Below, in pieces: positions 3,010 to 28,078 of a DNA stretch of 32,000 nucleotides (its first letter is position 1; each line of letters begins with the position of its first letter). The notes under the pieces are model-generated. The model was given only the letters and a program-made list of their open reading frames with translations. It ran no database searches and was not told where the DNA came from. The stretch is from assembly GCF_000021865.1 (NCBI RefSeq), contig NC_014034.1, positions 1,440,001 to 1,472,000 of the forward strand, written 5' to 3'. This DNA comes from Rhodobacter capsulatus SB 1003 (lineage in GTDB: Bacteria > Pseudomonadota > Alphaproteobacteria > Rhodobacterales > Rhodobacteraceae). Both the position numbers and the translations under genes were made by a program.

Positions 3010-3876
3010 TTACGCGCCCTCCAGATCGTGACGCTTCGCGAGGACATGATCCGCGATCGCCGCAGCCACCGCGCGCACCCGGCGCGAGGCGGCAAGTTCC
3101 GCGTGGGTGGCCAGGAGGATCGGCCGCTCCATCGGCGCGCCGTCGGGCAGCCGGGCCGCCAGCAGGCGCAGCCCGGCCTCGCGCGCAAGGAAATGCGGCA
3201 GCACCGCGACGCCCAGCCCATCCCGCACCGCCTGAACCTGCGCCGTCAGCGTGTTCAGCGCCAGCCGCGGCGCCGTGCGCGCGCCAAAGGCCGCCGACCA
3301 GGCAAGCGGCACCGCCAGGCTGGGCGCGTCGGGCCAGGTCACATGCCGCGCGGGCGGCGCCCCCTCGGCGGGGCCGTAAAGGCCGAAGCCCATCTGCGCC
3401 AGCCGCCGCACCGTCAGGTTGCCGCGCTCGGGCGGCACCATCCGCAAGGCCAGATCGGCGTCATGGCGGTGCAGGTTCACCGTCGCCGTCCCCCAATGCA
3501 CCTCGACGTCGAGCCCGGGATTCGCCGCCAGAAGCGGCCCGAGCGCGGGCAGCACGACCGGCGCCACCAGGCTTTCGATGCTGGCAAGCCGCACCAGGCC
3601 GCGGATCTCGACCTGCGCCCCGGCCTCGCGCCGCATTTCCTGCAATGCCAGTTCCATCGCCTCGGCCCGGGGCAGCAGCGCCGCGCCCTGGTCGGTCAGT
3701 TCGTGCCCGGTCTGGCGGCGCAGGAACAGCGGCAGGCCGAGCGTCGCCTCCATCCGGTCGATGCGCCGCGAGATCGTGGCAACGCCAAGACCCAGTCGCC
3801 GCGCCGCGCCCTGCAGCGTGCCCTCGCGCGCCAGCGCCAGAAACAGCCGGATGTCGTCCCAGTTCTGTGGCTCCAT
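3010..3876 (-). CDS. LysR-family transcriptional regulator
   Basis: 288 aa from MEPQNWDDIRLFLALAREGTLQGAARRLGLGVATISRRIDRMEATLGLPLFLRR (LysR HTH) plus a substrate-binding domain. It is only the C-terminal part of the artefactual 1019-aa ORF 3010..6069. It is divergent from the EamA gene. Confidence 0.85.
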   Translation of the reverse strand: MEPQNWDDIRLFLALAREGTLQGAARRLGLGVATISRRIDRMEATLGLPLFLRRQTGHELTDQGAALLPRAEAMELALQEMRREAGAQVEIRGLVRLASIESLVAPVVLPALGPLLAANPGLDVEVHWGTATVNLHRHDADLALRMVPPERGNLTVRRLAQMGFGLYGPAEGAPPARHVTWPDAPSLAVPLAWSAAFGARTAPRLALNTLTAQVQAVRDGLGVAVLPHFLAREAGLRLLAARLPDGAPMERPILLATHAELAASRRVRAVAAAIADHVLAKRHDLEGA

Positions 3877-3881
3877 GCGCG

Positions 3882-3895
3882 TTCCATTTTTGGAA
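3882..3895. promoter_or_regulatory. candidate LysR-type box TTCCA-N4-TGGAA in the LysR/EamA divergent intergenic region
   Basis: ttccatttttggaa is an inverted repeat 6 nt upstream of the LysR start. A second small palindrome, ttccaggaa, lies at 3922..3930. Confidence 0.35.
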
Positions 3896-3972
3896 ATCAG
3901 ATGCACGATCTTTGCCATATATTCCAGGAATGGGACATGGGACAGATCCTTCGTGTCAAACAGGAGGGTTCC

Positions 3973-4884: not shown

Positions 4885-5028
4885 CGGAGGAGACCCGGGC
4901 GCGCCTCCTGGCCCGCGCCCGCCTTGTGACGGCGCGGAGCGTGCAACAAGCGGGCGAGGGGCAGGGGCGTCCTGTTTCGCCCGCAGTTCCTGAGTAAAAC
5001 ACTCTTGAGTTCCGCGGGTTGCGGGGAT

Positions 5029-5050
5029 AGTGAAAATCGACTCTTTCACT
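5029..5050. promoter_or_regulatory. inverted repeat AGTGAAA-N8-TTTCACT upstream of the ABC substrate-binding protein gene
   Basis: Perfect 7-bp arms ending 21 nt before ATG 5071. The position fits an operator for a metal or iron-responsive repressor. Confidence 0.3.
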
Positions 5051-5070
5051 CGGAAACCGGACCCTCCCCC

Positions 5071-6105
5071 ATGTTGCCCCTCAAGACCGCCATTCTGGGT
5101 GGCGTCGCCCTCTCCTGCCTTTGCTCCGCCGCGCTTGCCGAGCGGACGAGCTATCCCCTCACCATCGAGAATTGCGAGCAAAAGGTGACCTTCGCGAAAG
5201 CACCCGAGCGCACCGTGGCGCTGGGGCAGAACAGCGCCGAGATCCTGCTCCTGCTGGGGCTCGAGGATCGCATGGCCGCCACCGCCTTCTGGCCGAACAG
5301 CGTCCTGCCGGAGCTGGCCGCGGCGCATGACAAGGTGGAGGTGCTGACGGTCGAATTCCCGACGCTTGAAGCGGTGCTGGCGCAGCAGCCCGATTTCGTG
5401 CCTGCCATGCTGGTGACGCTGATGGGGCCCGACAGCAAGGTCACCAAGCGTGAAGATCTGGAAGCGCTCGGCATCCCGACCTACCTCTCGCCCAGTGCCT
5501 GCACCACCGAGGCCGACACGCAGAGCGCGAACGGCAGCGCGGCGAGCTCTGCCTATGGTGTCCGCAAGGATCTGTGGTCCATGGACCTCCTCTACAAGGA
5601 GATCGAGGACATGGCGCGCATCTTCGACGTGGCCGAGCGCGGCGCGGCGGTGATCGCCGATTTCAAGGCCCGCGAGGCCGCCCTGCGCGCCGAATTCGCG
5701 CCGCGCGAGGATCTGACCTTCCTGTTCTGGTTCTCCAGCCCCTCGCCTGCCGACGATGCCTATCTGGGCGGCGGCCATGGGCCTTCGGGCTACATCGCCG
5801 ATCTGCTTGGCGGCTCCAACGCGATCAGGACCGAGGCGGAATGGCCGACCCTGGGCTGGGAAGGCATCATGGCCGCCAATCCCACCGTCTTCGTCGCCGC
5901 GCAGGTGGACCGCAACCGCTGGGACCTTGACCGGGCCGACACCAAGATCGCCTGGCTGACCTCCGATCCGGCGGTCAGCCAGATGGAGGCGGTCAAGGCG
6001 GGGCGCATCGCGGTGATGAGCGGGGCGGCGATGAACCCCTCGATCCGCACGCTTTACGGCGCCGAGCAACTGGCAGACCAGCTCCGTTCCTTCGACCTGC
6101 CGTGA
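5071..6105 (+). CDS. ABC transporter periplasmic substrate-binding protein (iron-siderophore/cobalamin type, PBP cluster A)
   Basis: Signal peptide MLPLKTAILGGVALSCLCSAALA, then ...PERTVALGQNSAEILLLLGLEDRMAA...QQPDFV..., typical of FecB/FhuD-like binders. Its stop overlaps the permease GTG (GTGA). Confidence 0.8.
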   Translation: MLPLKTAILGGVALSCLCSAALAERTSYPLTIENCEQKVTFAKAPERTVALGQNSAEILLLLGLEDRMAATAFWPNSVLPELAAAHDKVEVLTVEFPTLEAVLAQQPDFVPAMLVTLMGPDSKVTKREDLEALGIPTYLSPSACTTEADTQSANGSAASSAYGVRKDLWSMDLLYKEIEDMARIFDVAERGAAVIADFKAREAALRAEFAPREDLTFLFWFSSPSPADDAYLGGGHGPSGYIADLLGGSNAIRTEAEWPTLGWEGIMAANPTVFVAAQVDRNRWDLDRADTKIAWLTSDPAVSQMEAVKAGRIAVMSGAAMNPSIRTLYGAEQLADQLRSFDLP

Positions 6106-6686
6106 GCATTCGTGACGAGACCGGAAGCGGGGCGGGGAAATTCCTCTTGCTTCTGACGGTGTCCCTTCTGGTTCTGTGTCTTGCCGTCGCGGTGGCGATG
6201 ACCGTCGGCGATTATGCCATCGCGCTTGGCACGGTCGTGCTGGCGGTGGGCAACGGGCTGGGCCTCACGACCGCCGAGATCCCGCGCATCGAGCAGAGCG
6301 TGGTCTGGGACCTGCGGCTGAGCCGCGCGCTGGTCGCGGCGCTGGCGGGCGCGGGGCTGGCCATCTGCGGCGCGATCCTGCAGGCGCTGCTGCGCAACCC
6401 GCTGGCCGAACCCTTCGTGCTGGGCGTCTCGGCGGGGGCCTCGACCGGCGCGGTGGCGGTCATCGTGCTGGGCATCGGCGCGGGCGGGCTGTCGCTGTCC
6501 ATGGGGGCTTTCGCGGGCGCCTTCGCCGCCTTCGCGCTGGTGGCGCTTTTGTCGAACGGCGCGACCAGCGGGCCGAACCACACGATCCTCGCGGGGGTCG
6601 CCGCCTCGCAGCTTTTCAACGCGCTGACCTCCTATATCGTCACCACCTCGGGCAATGCCCAACAGGCGCGCGACGTGATGTTCTGA
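6102..6686 (+). pseudogene. FecCD-family ABC permease, truncated after about 194 codons by an IS end
   Basis: LRLSRALVAALAGAGLAICGAILQALLRNPLAEPFVLGVSAGAS... is canonical FecCD. The ORF ends at ...QQARDVMF, where intact homologs continue (usually FW..G..) for about 140 more residues. The stop TGA at 6684 is the first triplet of the IS3-like terminus. No ATPase gene follows. Confidence 0.75.
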
Positions 6687-7230
6687 CCCGTGCCGGGTTT
6701 GCCGGAGGCTCCAACTCCTGAGTAGGATGGAGCATCATGAGCAAGACAACGAACAAGTTTTTCCCGGAAGTGCGCGAACGCGCCGTGCGTCTGGTCCTCG
6801 ACAGTTCGGCGGACCGCGCCGTCGGTTCAAGCGGATCGCCGAACGGGCAGCATGGATCGCGCTGGCACCACAGCGACCGCGGCAACCAATATCTGTCGAT
6901 CAAAGACGACCCGCGCGGCTGGCCGAAGCGGGTATCGAACCTTCGGTCGCTTCAGGGGCTTACGCGGCCCCACCGGGGCCACGGTCCCCTTTCCCCGTCG
7001 GCGACAGCCATGACAAGGCGCTGGCCGAGACGATCAACGGGCTTTTCAAAGCCGAGGTCATCGATCGTCGCGGTCCATGGCGCCGCTTCGAGGCGGTGGA
7101 ATACGCAACGCTGGAATGGGTCGACGGGTTCAACAATCGCCGCCTGCTCAAGCCGATCGGGACCATTCCGCCCGCCGAAGCGGAAGCAGACTTCCATGCG
7201 GCTTTGGAAACTGAAGCCATGGCCGCGTCA
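6684..7230 (+). mobile_element. IS3-family insertion sequence relic (left end, orfA N-terminus fused to orfB fragments by internal deletions)
   Basis: The terminus begins TGACCCGTGCC. MSKTTNKFFPEVRERAVRLVLD is the IS3 OrfA N-terminus. HHSDRGNQYLSI and GDSHDKALAETINGLFKAEVIDRRGPWRRFEAVEYATLEWVDGFNNRRLLKPIGTIPPAEAEADFHAALE are OrfB DDE and C-terminal motifs, found in two frames. Confidence 0.75.
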
Positions 7231-7254
7231 CCAACCCAAATCCGCCTCCGGCAA

Positions 7255-7495
7255 ACCCGGCGCGGGTCACATCTTCACCCGCCCCCATACACCAAAGACC
7301 AACGGCAGGGCCGAGAGGTTCATCCAGACCCTCCTCAGAGAATGGGCCTACGGCCTCGTACACCCGTCTGCCCAAGCGCGAAATACCGACCTGCCGCGAT
7401 GGCTTGACTGGTTCAACACATCAAGACCACACTCCGCACTTAACGGCCTGTCACCCGTCAAAAGGGTGAACAACCTGATGAGAACTCACAGCTAG
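7255..7495 (+). mobile_element. IS481-family transposase C-terminal relic (boundaries approximate)
   Basis: FTRPHTPKTNGRAERFIQTLLREWAYGLVHPSAQARNTDLPRWLDWFNTSRPHSALNGLSPVKRV is the characteristic IS481 integrase-core C-terminus. No N-terminal part and no terminal inverted repeat are present. Confidence 0.7.
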
Positions 7496-7764
7496 CCGGT
7501 GCTCGATCTGCCCACGGCGGCAATGGCGCTTTATACGTTTCTGGCCTTTGCGCCTTCGGGGGGCGCGGCAACCGCACCTCGATGCGCGGCGGCGGGCCTC
7601 TGGTGACGCTGATCGACCCGCGCGAGGGGCGGGGCAGCCTGTGAGATCTGATCTGGGCGAATGTCCCCTGCGGTCAGCCCGGCCGGGCCGGGGATCTGCC
7701 GTGGATGCGCCCCAGCTTGGGCGAGATTGTCCGCTTTGTCACCGATGCGGTGCGGGGGGCGTGA
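7496..7764 (+). pseudogene. cas7e: cas7e (casC/cse4) 3-prime fragment with one frameshift and one in-frame stop
   Basis: ALYTFLAFAPSGG (frame 2) then GNRTSMRGGGPLVTLIDPREGRGSL-stop-DLIWANV...RPSLGEIVRFVTDAVRGA (frame 1). From memory this resembles the E. coli CasC tail (HMLATEVPGAKQ...MVMVNF...SMANAF...MPTLEQLKSWVRNNGEA). Its stop overlaps the cas5e ATG (TGATG), as in I-E operons. Confidence 0.5.
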
Positions 7765-8000
7765 TGCAGCCCTTTCTCATCTTCGGCCTCTCGGCCAGCC
7801 TTGCCGCGATGGGCGAACTGGCGGGGCACGAACGGGGCGGCTCGCTGATCTGGCCCGGCCGGTCCGCCCTCCTCGGGCGTCCGGGCGCGGCGCTTGGCAT
7901 CCGTCGCGACGGCGATTTTACTGCCCTTGATACGCTGGATGCTTCGGTGGCGATCTTTGACGCGGGGGCGGCGCTGCGCGATTATCACACCATCGAAAGC
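7764..8000 (+). pseudogene. cas5e: cas5e (casD) 5-prime fragment, about 77 codons
   Basis: MQPFLIFGLSASLAAMGELAGHERGGSLIWPGRSALLGRPGAALGIRRDGD...LRDYHTI parallels the Cas5e N-terminus (YLILRLAGPMQAWG...RPTGRFPTRSGLLGLLGACLGIQRDD...LRDYHTV). Similarity ends near 7995. Confidence 0.65.
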
Positions 8001-8002
8001 GT

Positions 8003-8101
8003 GATGATCAGGGCTACGACTTCCGGACCGCAGGTCGAAATCGCCGGAGGCCGGTGGATTTCGACGGGCTGAAGCTGGTGAGTTTCAAGCCGGACAGGTG
8101 A
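8003..8101 (+). pseudogene. cas2e: cas2e 3-prime fragment, last about 32 codons
   Basis: DDQGYDFRTAGRNRRRPVDFDGLKLVSFKPDR-stop matches the Cas2e C-terminus ([30 protein letters not shown]-stop). It joins the cas5e fragment directly, which implies loss of the cas5e 3-prime part, cas6e, cas1e and most of cas2e. Confidence 0.7.
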
Positions 8102-8188
8102 GGCCGATCCGAAGCGGAAAGCTGGAGAGAATTCGATGCGCTCTTTGACATTGCGAAAATCTTGCTGGATCAAGGATCTGCAGGAAGA
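8102..8188 (+). promoter_or_regulatory. CRISPR leader remnant between the cas2e stop and the first repeat
   Basis: 87 nt, lower GC than the surroundings (attcgatgcgctctttgacattgcgaaaatcttgctgg), in the canonical I-E leader position. Confidence 0.5.
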
Positions 8189-8278
8189 CTGTTCCCCGCC
8201 AATGCGGGGATGAACCGGTCGGCGCATCGATCATCGCGCAGACACGCAGCTGTTTGCCGACATGGCCACGGATCAAAG
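8189..8278 (+). CRISPR. type I-E mini-array: 29-nt repeat, 32-nt spacer, degenerate terminal repeat
   Basis: The repeat ctgttccccgccaatgcggggatgaaccg (8189..8217) has the I-E signature. The spacer gtcggcgcatcgatcatcgcgcagacacgcag (8218..8249) is exactly 32 nt. The terminal repeat ctgtttgccgacatggccacggatcaaag (8250..8278) shares about half its positions. Confidence 0.75.
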
Positions 8279-8290
8279 GGCGACGACACG

Positions 8291-8514
8291 TGATGTGATC
8301 CTTTTTGATGTGCCAACGGCGGCGATTGATCTGTTTTGAGGGATCAACGCCTGTGCAGAGGCGGGTTTTGATCTGCATAAACCAATCAGTTCCGCCAGAT
8401 GATCTGTCAGGACAGATCGCATGTTTCCCGAGACCGGGGAAATCGCAGCCCGGTTCCGGGCGGCCCCGCGCGCAAGGGGGTTCGTCAGCGCGAGTTGTCC
8501 GCGCGGGCCGGGGG
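8291..8514 (+). repeat. dispersed repeat copy B (CRISPR trailer / hipB-like promoter and 5-prime coding region)
   Basis: Paralog of 2220..2444. Both palindromes (TTGATC-N10-GATCAA and GATCTGTCAGGACAGATC) are conserved. Confidence 0.85.
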
Positions 8515-8620: not shown

Positions 8621-9529
8621 TCAGCCGTGCTTGATGAAGGTGCCGTTGTTCAGCTCGCGCAGGGCCTGACGCAGTTCCTCCTGCGTGTTCATCACGATCG
8701 GCCCGTGCCAGGCGACGGGTTCCTGAATCGGGCGGCCGGTCATCAGCAGGAACCGGATCCCCGCGTCGCCCGCCTGAACGGTGATCTCGTCCCCCGCGCC
8801 GAACCGGACAAGGGTGCGGTTGCCGGTGCGGTTGCGCAGGGTCAGCTCCTGGCCGCGAAATTCCTTCTCGACCTGGATGCCCACCGGATCGGCTGCATCG
8901 CGAAACGTCCCCGATCCGGCAAAGACATAGGCCAGCGCATTGGCGCGGGTGTCGATGGGCAGCACCTTGCGCCGCCCCGGCGGAATGGACACATCGAGCA
9001 GCATCGGATTGGCCGCGATCCCGTCGACCGGGCCGGTCTTGCCCCAGAAAGACCCGATGATCACCTTGACGGTGGTGCCGTCGTCGTCGCCCTCGATCGG
9101 AATGTCGCCCGCCGCCACGTCCTGATAGCGCGGCGCGGTCATCTTCAGCGCGGCGGGCAGGTTCGCCCAAAGCTGAAAGCCGTGCATCTTTCCCTCGGCA
9201 TTGCCGAAGGGCATTTCCTGATGCACGATGCCCGAGCCCGCCGTCATCCATTGCACGCCGCCCGCGCCAAGGAGCCCCCGGTTGCCCAGCGAATCCGCGT
9301 GTTCCACCTGGCCCTCAAGCACATAGGTGATCGTCTCGATGCCGCGGTGCGGATGCCAGGGAAAGCCCTTGGCATAAAACCGCGGATCGTCGTTGCGGAA
9401 ATCGTCCATCATCAGGAAGGGGTCGGTCAGCGCCGGATCGCCAAAGCCGAAGACGCGTTGCAGATGCACGCCTGCGCCCTCGATGGCGGGCTGTGCGGTG
9501 CTGGTGGCAAGAACGGGTCTGAAGGTCAT
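8621..9529 (-). CDS. pirin-family protein (bicupin)
   Basis: 302 aa from MTFRPVLATSTAQPAIEGAGVHLQRVFGF...GFPWHPHRGIETITYVLEGQVEHADSLGN...GGVQWMTAGSGIVHQEMP. GGGAG precedes the ATG at 9529. Confidence 0.9.
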   Translation of the reverse strand: MTFRPVLATSTAQPAIEGAGVHLQRVFGFGDPALTDPFLMMDDFRNDDPRFYAKGFPWHPHRGIETITYVLEGQVEHADSLGNRGLLGAGGVQWMTAGSGIVHQEMPFGNAEGKMHGFQLWANLPAALKMTAPRYQDVAAGDIPIEGDDDGTTVKVIIGSFWGKTGPVDGIAANPMLLDVSIPPGRRKVLPIDTRANALAYVFAGSGTFRDAADPVGIQVEKEFRGQELTLRNRTGNRTLVRFGAGDEITVQAGDAGIRFLLMTGRPIQEPVAWHGPIVMNTQEELRQALRELNNGTFIKHG

Positions 9530-26518: not shown

Positions 26519-28078
26519 TTACAGCTTGTAGCTGATCGATTTCACATCGGCATCGGGCGCGGTCTTCTGGCTGCGCACGCGCAGACGGTTCAGTGCGCCG
26601 ACATAGGCCTTGACTGAGGCGAGGATCGTGTCGGTATCGGCGGCCGAGCCGGTGACGATGCGGCCATCCTCGGCCAGACGCACGGACACCGTGGCCTGCG
26701 CATCCGTCCCTTCGGTCACGGCATGGACCTGATAGATCTTCAGCTCGGCCGTGGTCGGATAAATCGCCTGCACCGCCTTGAAACAGGCGTCGACCGGGCC
26801 GTCGCCCGCACATTTCGCCGTCTTTTCAACGCCATCGACGAGCATCTTCAGTTCCGCTTCCTGCCCGTCGCTGCCGCAGATCACCCGCAGCCATTTCACC
26901 TGCAGGAAGTCGTGATCAGTGTTCGCGGTGCTGTCGGTCAGAAGCGCGATCAGGTCGTCGTCATAGACTTCCTTCTTGCGGTCGGCCAAGGCCTTGAAGC
27001 GCACGAAGACGTCGTTGAGCTGGTTGTCGGCGAGTTCAAACCCCAGATCGCGCATCTTGGTGCGCAAGGCGGCGCGGCCCGAATGCTTGCCCATCGCGAT
27101 GTTGGTCTCGGTCAGGCCGATGTCGGCGGGGCGCATGATTTCAAAGGTTTCGACGTTTTTCAGCACGCCGTCCTGATGGATGCCCGATTCGTGCAGGAAG
27201 GCGTTCTTGCCGACGACCGCCTTGTTGAACTGCACCGGGAAGCCCGAGACCTGCGCGACGCGGCGGCTCAGATGCATGATCTTCGTCGTGTCGATGCCGG
27301 TGGTGAAGGGCATCAGATCCTTGCGGACCTTGATCGCCATCACGACTTCTTCCAGCGCAGTGTTGCCCGCGCGCTCGCCCAGGCCGTTGATCGTGCATTC
27401 GATCTGCCGCGCCCCGGCCGAAACCGCGGCGAGCGCATTCGCCGTCGCCATGCCAAGGTCATTGTGGCAATGCGTGGCGAAGATCACCTCGTCGGCGCCC
27501 GGCACCTTTTCGAGCAGCATCGCGATGATGTCCGAGCTCTCCGAGGGCAGGGTGTAGCCCACGGTGTCGGGAATGTTGATCGTGGTGGCGCCCGCCTTGA
27601 TCGCGCATTCGACGACGCGGCACAGGTAATCGCGCTCGGTGCGGATCGCATCCATCGCCGACCATTGCACGTCTTCGCAGAGATTGCGCGCATGGGTCAC
27701 GGTGTCGTGGATGCGTTCGAGCATTTCCTCGGTGCCGAGGTTGGTGATGCCGCGGTGCAGCGGCGAGGTGCCGATGAAGGTGTGGATGCGCGGCCGGGCG
27801 GCGTGTTTCACCGCCTCCCAGCAGCGGTCGATGTCCTTGTAATTGGCGCGCGAAAGCCCGGCGATGACGGAATTTTTCGAGGCCTTGGCGATCGCGGACA
27901 CGGCTTCGAAATCGCCTTCCGAGGCGATCGGGAAACCGGCTTCGATGATGTCGACGCCCATTTCGTCGAGCAGCATGGCGATTTCGAGCTTTTCGTCATG
28001 GGTCATGGTGGCGCCGGGCGATTGTTCGCCGTCGCGCAGCGTGGTGTCAAAAATCAGAACGCGGGATTTGTCGGTCAT
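26519..28078 (-). CDS. leuA: 2-isopropylmalate synthase
   Basis: 519 aa, MTDKSRVLIFDTTLRDGEQSPGATMTHDEKLEIAMLLDEMGVDIIEAGFPIAS...HCHNDLGMATAN..., with a C-terminal LeuA dimerisation/regulatory domain. Confidence 0.95.
   Translation of the reverse strand: MTDKSRVLIFDTTLRDGEQSPGATMTHDEKLEIAMLLDEMGVDIIEAGFPIASEGDFEAVSAIAKASKNSVIAGLSRANYKDIDRCWEAVKHAARPRIHTFIGTSPLHRGITNLGTEEMLERIHDTVTHARNLCEDVQWSAMDAIRTERDYLCRVVECAIKAGATTINIPDTVGYTLPSESSDIIAMLLEKVPGADEVIFATHCHNDLGMATANALAAVSAGARQIECTINGLGERAGNTALEEVVMAIKVRKDLMPFTTGIDTTKIMHLSRRVAQVSGFPVQFNKAVVGKNAFLHESGIHQDGVLKNVETFEIMRPADIGLTETNIAMGKHSGRAALRTKMRDLGFELADNQLNDVFVRFKALADRKKEVYDDDLIALLTDSTANTDHDFLQVKWLRVICGSDGQEAELKMLVDGVEKTAKCAGDGPVDACFKAVQAIYPTTAELKIYQVHAVTEGTDAQATVSVRLAEDGRIVTGSAADTDTILASVKAYVGALNRLRVRSQKTAPDADVKSISYKL

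Follow-up and report, generated by a model that had tools for sequence, protein, structure and literature searches.

Does the stretch 7491–8278 of the window (the 32,000 nucleotides of the Rhodobacter capsulatus SB 1003 chromosome analysed here) hold a CRISPR-Cas locus, and is anything of it still in working order? The initial annotation had read it as an eroded type I-E locus left with three cas fragments, a leader, and a one-spacer array. The erosion is borne out by HMM matches and by block-wise collinearity with the intact loci of close relatives, but the cas fragments number four (cas8e, cas7e, cas5e, and cas2e). Together with the leader and the one-spacer array, they lie in the ancestral order and orientation. 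The stretch very probably represents a type I-E CRISPR-Cas locus that has lost its function and persists on the R. capsulatus chromosome as a neutral scar.

When the Cas5e fragment was scanned against one genome per species, 78 I-E loci were obtained. The closest were those of R. capsulatus DSM 1710 (L004, 91% amino acid identity), R. capsulatus SP18 (L025), R. aestuarii, and R. maris. The intact locus of DSM 1710 (contig NZ_QKZO01000019.1) was used as the reference, and its genes are listed with the features of the window in Table 1. Compared with this locus, 7491–8278 consists of three collinear blocks of 90–95% nucleotide identity. The same three blocks were obtained by blastn against SP18, R. 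maris, R. aestuarii, Thioclava, and Haematobacter; the gene order claimed earlier as that of I-E systems is the order of these intact loci. The operon, about 8.5 kb in the intact relatives, has shrunk to about 0.6 kb in the remnant, and every remaining gene is a fragment.

Table 1. Coordinates of the remnant and its upstream edge in the window, and of the intact reference locus of DSM 1710 (L004).
Feature	Position	Strand	Basis
Probable IS3-family element, internally deleted, ~578 of ~1.3 kb, both ends matched	window 6692–7269	+	blastn, NF033516
IS481-family 3′ end: transposase C-terminus and complete right inverted repeat	window 7270–7490	+	NF033577, Roseovarius comparison
cas8e/cse1/casA internal fragment, codons ~138–212 of 489	window 7491–7714	+	profile, blastn, tblastn
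cas7e, last ~16 codons and stop	window 7715–7764	+	alignment to L004 9952–10001; tblastn E 0.002
cas5e, codons 1–80 of 227	window 7764–8003	+	profile, tblastn, blastn
Two bases (AT) at the cas5e/cas2e junction, matching neither side	window 8004–8005	+	alignment
cas2e, codons 63–93 and stop (TGA 8099–8101)	window 8006–8101	+	profile, tblastn; aligns to L004 12515–12610
CRISPR leader, 87 nt	window 8102–8188	+	aligns without gaps to leaders of equal length in DSM 1710, R. maris, SP18
Canonical 29-nt I-E repeat, CTGTTCCCCGCCAATGCGGGGATGAACCG	window 8189–8217	+	uniqueness, fold, relatives' arrays
Single spacer, 32 nt, GTCGGCGCATCGATCATCGCGCAGACACGCAG	window 8218–8249	+	length equal to the relatives' modal spacer
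Probable degenerate terminal repeat, CTGTTTGCCGACATGGCCACGGATCAAAG	window 8250–8278	+	match at exact 32-nt offset
cas3	L004 4003–6528		
casA	L004 6959–8428		
casB	L004 8425–8919		
cas7e	L004 8916–10001		
cas5e	L004 10001–10684		
cas6e	L004 10681–11352		
cas1e	L004 11349–12332		
cas2e	L004 12329–12610		
Leader	L004 12611–12697		

The first fragment had been taken for a cas7e tail with a frameshift and an internal stop. It is not Cas7e, because its profile matches are to Cse1/Cas8e: PF09481 (positions 137–198 of 450, E 3.5e-9), TIGR02547 (E 3.5e-6), and NF007247. In blastn, window 7501–7714 corresponded to L004 7378–7592 with 95.3% nucleotide identity, and in tblastn residues 140–212 of DSM 1710 casA matched the window with an E value of 2e-25. 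Plasmid records searched by blastn carry the annotation casA over window 7496–7712. Both lesions were found on alignment to DSM 1710, a 1-nt deletion in a G run at about 7566/7567 that shifts the reading frame and a TGG to TGA change at 7642–7644 that creates an in-frame stop, but the sequence that holds them is cas8e. Only the short piece that follows is cas7e; it ends in GEIVRFVTDAVRGA before the stop, where DSM 1710 has EEITRFVTDAVRGA. Its TGA (7762–7764) shares one base with the cas5e ATG (7764–7766), as in the intact locus and as had been noted from the start. When the comparison was made with SP18 and R. maris, block 1 began at 7491 and block 2 at 7713–7718.

The cas5e fragment, put at about 77 codons before, has 80. 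Its ORF opens with MQPFLIFGLSASLAAMGELAGHE, and the fragment matched PF09704 (positions 1–79 of 217, E 4e-11) and also TIGR01868 in the profile search. Its amino acid identity to Cas5e of DSM 1710 was 91% (tblastn, E 4e-41), and the nucleotide identity of block 2 was 93.0% (blastn, window 7731–8003 corresponding to L004 9968–10240). The dN/dS ratio of the fragment against DSM 1710 was 0.33, compared with 0.06 for two intact copies; these values come from small numbers, and the former fits relaxed constraint. The ORF continues out of frame to 8072, which gives the 102-aa product reported by gene callers.

For cas2e, the C-terminal peptide ending in GRNRRRPVDFDGLKLVSFKPDR before the stop matched PF09707 (positions 58–86 of 86, E 4e-7) and also TIGR01873, with 97% amino acid identity to Cas2e of DSM 1710 (tblastn, E 8e-17). 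Block 3, which comprises the end of cas2e, the leader, and the repeat, was 90.6% identical to DSM 1710 (blastn, window 8006–8217 corresponding to L004 12515–12726), and over the same interval the plasmid records found by blastn are annotated as cas2e and downstream sequence. The profile check proposed for Cas7e, Cas5e, and Cas2e thus holds for the last two, the first fragment being a match to Cse1/Cas8e. The direct joining of cas5e to cas2e was correct as to the cas2e C-terminus (31 codons and the stop), but the two unmatched bases intervene and the two fragments are out of frame relative to each other. It may be noted that tblastn also aligned Cas2e (residues 42–91) with window 27716–27859 (38%, E 0.004); the sequence there is GC-rich, and the match was judged to be probably due to chance.

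Compared with L004, two internal deletions are seen. The first has removed about 2359 bp (~2.36 kb), namely the 3′ part of casA, casB, and most of cas7e. Its junction, at 7714/7715, shows a possible microhomology of not more than 1–3 nt, and the reading frame from cas8e to cas7e happens to be kept. In the second, about 2274 bp (~2.27 kb) is gone, that is, the 3′ part of cas5e, cas6e, cas1e, and the 5′ part of cas2e. The initial annotation had explained the loss by IS-mediated deletion together with an internal cas5e–cas2e deletion. An IS is indeed present at the upstream edge and so is that deletion, but the ~2.36-kb deletion had been missed.

The eight Cas proteins of DSM 1710 were searched against the window by tblastn. 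The only matches were to casA residues 140–212, the cas7e C-terminus, cas5e 1–80, and cas2e 63–93; cas3, casB (cse2), cas6e, and cas1e were not found in the 32 kb (best E > 0.08). The earlier list of missing genes is therefore right for cas3, cse2, cas6e, and cas1 but not for cse1, which survives as a fragment. The window does not contain the gene set of a functional type I-E system, which requires cas3, cse1, cse2, cas7e, cas5e, and cas6e for interference and cas1e–cas2e for adaptation. As cas3, cse2, cas6e, and cas1 are missing throughout the window, the locus cannot work: without Cas6e, Cascade, Cas3, and Cas1–Cas2, the remnant can carry out no crRNA processing, interference, or spacer acquisition. 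Its output would be, at most, a short unprocessed leader transcript. What marks it as a relic of type I-E is the fragment of the signature gene cas8e, the I-E order of cas7e, cas5e, and cas2e, and a 29-nt repeat, a 32-nt spacer, and a leader downstream of cas2.

The IS481 relic reported at the upstream edge is confirmed. Window 7270–7495 encodes the C-terminal 69 residues of a transposase of the IS481 family (NF033577 positions 216–284 of 284, E 4e-23). The right inverted repeat, TGAACAACCTGATGAGAACTCACA, is complete (7467–7490), and GCTAG comes next. A Roseovarius plasmid carries an intact element to which the relic has 75% nucleotide identity; there, the inverted repeat terminates at the corresponding position, with CTAG after it. 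The relic thus has the transposase, the terminal inverted repeat, and the CTAG-type target of the IS481 family, while the 5′ three quarters of the element is missing. At the insertion point, casA of SP18 and R. maris reads GCTACCCGG; the GCTAG at the start of the cas8e fragment is both the IS481 target and the transposase stop, the stop TAG having been made from a casA TAC codon. The casA homology begins at 7491, right after the inverted repeat. This is a genuine IS481 insertion junction and not a random deletion end.

Further upstream, window 6692–7269 matched IS3 elements by blastn in three pieces that cover both ends and span about 1313 bp elsewhere, and it also matched NF033516 (positions 308–369 of 369, E 1.4e-10). 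This probable IS3 relic abuts the truncated IS481 on its right and a truncated FecCD permease gene on its left. The latter, a FecCD-type ABC permease gene (6102–6686), matches its profile over positions 2–172 of 325, the IS3 relic having cut it short near the middle. All assemblies have it called as a 194-aa protein, but it is likely to be a pseudogene.

The arrangement suggests the following history. An IS481-family element would have inserted first, in cas8e at a CTAG-like site, which would have been enough to inactivate Cascade. An IS3-family element would then have truncated the IS481, and an adjacent deletion or IS–IS recombination may have removed the 5′ part of the IS481, the 5′ part of cas8e, cas3, and anything further upstream. 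The two internal deletions, involving little or no microhomology, could have occurred in either order. The array was probably reduced to one spacer through repeat–repeat recombination, and point mutations, including the frameshift and the nonsense codon, would have built up.

Did this decay take place at the present site? The comparison with the relatives' intact I-E loci, which had been recommended at the outset, gave collinearity for the remnant blocks but no synteny beyond them: for the 78 related loci, no match was found outside 7491–8234 (within 10 kb). As none of these intact loci shares synteny beyond the remnant itself, decay at the present site is an inference. The sequence upstream of the intact locus in DSM 1710 does not continue the FecCD gene but encodes WYL/HTH regulators. 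They are two WYL-domain proteins (one WYL+WCX) and one HTH protein of the IclR/MarR type. The WYL/HTH genes, at L004 2247–3233 (− strand) and 3277–3969 (+ strand), are candidate I-E regulators, and none survive in the window.

A near-duplicate (99.65% identity) of 4971–6685 (a promoter, a periplasmic-binding-protein gene, and the 5′ half of the FecCD gene) was observed on JBSKGO010000002.1, a contig of 133 kb in the same assembly that is probably a plasmid. The similarity ends right at the IS3 relic, beyond which the contig carries on with the permease and ATPase genes. The pattern is suggestive of a recent duplication between replicons, associated with an IS. Such a duplicate makes the region a mosaic, into which the remnant may have come in a damaged state along with IS or plasmid DNA, for example by IS-mediated recombination with a plasmid-borne I-E locus. 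I-E loci are often plasmid-borne in related Paracoccaceae, and the lack of flank synteny with the relatives' intact loci also agrees with an import. We nevertheless consider it rather unlikely. The closest intact locus is from the same species (DSM 1710), and its 90–95% identity is what vertical or within-species descent would give. Moreover, the array is followed directly by chromosomal genes common to all strains (pirin, 8621–9529; RNase T; the che cluster), with no mark of a mobile-element boundary on the right-hand side.

We turn now to the leader and the array. The 87-nt leader aligns to the leaders of DSM 1710, R. maris, and SP18 without gaps and has with them the common block GTGCGCTCTTTGACATTG, so the length given in the initial annotation is correct. 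The same is true of the 29-nt I-E repeat. This 29-mer has no second copy in the 32-kb window, not even with 3 mismatches (0 expected by chance). Its fold is a hairpin with a 7-bp stem and a 4-nt loop, and a AUGAACCG tail comes after it (−13.6 kcal/mol, z −3.4), the 3′ handle being of the 8-nt AUGAACCG type. The relatives' arrays have the repeat CTGTTCCCCGCCCACGCGGGGATGAACCG and spacers of 32 nt; the repeat of the window differs from theirs at two loop bases only, and both can be written as one pattern, CTGTTCCCCGCC(A/C)A(T/C)GCGGGGATGAACCG. No match was found in the window with Rfam at gathering thresholds. At permissive settings, CRISPR-DR10 reached 15.9 bits, its gathering score being 39. 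RsmY (18 bits vs 57) was also sub-threshold and was rejected, the score being ascribed to the repeat hairpin. As no Rfam family exceeded its threshold, typing of the repeat rests on the relatives' arrays.

The spacer has exactly the 32 nt claimed for it. The suggested BLAST of the spacer gave no convincing target in phage or plasmid sequences. No protospacer was found in phage records, plasmids, IMG/VR (searched for exact matches and with every 6th base free), or JGI metagenomes, the best match being at chance level (E 0.08).

The sequence that follows the spacer is, with high confidence, a degenerate terminal repeat, as had been proposed. It matches the repeat at 15 of 29 positions without gaps (52%), a level reached by 0.7% of window positions, and its 5′ part matches at 10 of 13. 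Could the repeat be a solitary one, with the supposed spacer and terminal repeat being flanking sequence that resembles a repeat by chance? The modest 15/29 identity would allow this. The second copy is predicted to fold no better than shuffled sequence does (z −0.86), and a gapped score as high is obtained for 3.7% of random 31-mers of the window. The reading is very unlikely, however, because only a single, pre-specified offset of 32 nt was considered, at which the 10/13 match of the 5′ 13 nt is equalled at 0.05% of window positions. In addition, the terminal repeats of SP18, R. aestuarii, and Tabrizicola (L025, L077, L021) show the same pattern, CTGTTC..CCG.C being kept while the 3′ half is decayed.

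Two other observations concern this end of the locus. A 97-aa ORF (8085–8378, − strand) is called in every assembly; it has no Pfam match, runs antisense to the leader, repeat, and spacer, and is most likely spurious. Downstream of the array, 8290–8420 is AT-richer and, unlike the flanks of the relatives' arrays, holds several imperfect TTTTGAT(C/G)-containing copies, with direct repeats at 8296–8318/8327–8349 (74%) and an inverted repeat at 8328–8346/8400–8418.

That the stub, with or without the 102-aa Cas5e N-terminal ORF, is retained because it is useful, either as an orphan mini-array on which another I-E system of the cell acts in trans or as a transcribed decoy or regulatory RNA, is very unlikely: the leader, with its ungapped alignment and TTGACA-containing conserved block, and the first repeat, with its perfect hairpin, are the best-kept non-coding parts, but tblastn found no cas6e or Cascade genes in the window, the SB1003 literature found describes a type VI-A system with unrelated repeats, the spacer has no detectable target, the leader is no more identical to that of DSM 1710 (~87–90%) than the dead coding blocks are, and a promoter scan reported no site within it. 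Were the stub useful, for instance if served by a plasmid-acquired I-E system, it would not be a neutral scar.

Five other R. capsulatus assemblies carry the remnant with 100% identity and two more in near-identical form, and the surrounding region is 99.6–100% identical over 21 kb in six R. capsulatus assemblies. An assembly artefact was rejected, as the remnant is identical in independent assemblies; the same identity means that it is fixed in this R. capsulatus lineage. It had been stated that the ORF track hides the locus completely. This was overstated: the truncated cas5e ORF of 102 aa, which occurs on 10 contigs, is called by gene callers with a Cas_Cas5d match, and GenBank has an almost identical protein under the name 'CRISPR-associated protein Cas5 [Rhodobacter capsulatus YW1]'. 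No description of the remnant was found in the literature, and the SB1003 literature found covers the type VI-A system only.

For a model organism, the result amounts to a correction of annotation. The lineage that includes the 3,738,958-bp chromosome has a dead I-E locus beside the type VI-A system that has been studied, and the called ORFs of 102 aa ('Cas5') and 97 aa/252 aa are pseudogene debris. The dismantling of a class 1 system can be followed here at base resolution, through IS481 insertion, IS3-associated truncation, two ~2.3-kb deletions, and collapse of the array, with an intact reference (DSM 1710) available from the same species. The practical value is modest, and no new question on CRISPR biology is opened.

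The intact I-E loci of DSM 1710, SP18, R. maris, R. aestuarii, and Haematobacter massiliensis (pOT1-4) have the same gene order and orientation as the remnant. They also have an 87-nt leader, 32-nt spacers, a repeat that differs at 2 loop bases, and a like decay of the terminal repeat, but their arrays have 20–66 spacers and that of the remnant has one. Another partial I-E locus in the family may be that of Paracoccus versutus pTAV1 (L001 10500–15117), which has casA-casB-cas7e-cas5e-cas6e with no cas3, cas1, or cas2 annotated nearby in a PLSDB gene table that is itself incomplete.

Lineages of E. coli are known in which the I-E cas genes are gone but the leader and residual repeats persist; cas genes disrupted by IS elements are known from Shigella and E. 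coli. The degenerate enterobacterial I-E loci likewise involve IS insertion and deletion, with the leader and a short array left as a scar. The remnant differs from them in its alphaproteobacterial host, in gene-fusing deletions with little or no microhomology, and in the nested IS481 and IS3 relics. With orphan and mini CRISPR arrays, and with solitary repeats on mobile elements, it shares a very short, one-spacer array without a usable cas operon. Unlike these, its array has kept the connection with its leader and cas fragments, and nothing points to a mobile-element function. Being attached to them in the ancestral order, the array is a decay product and not a stand-alone element. The remnant is a clear but ordinary example of CRISPR-Cas loss, IS insertion and deletion being a well-known route.
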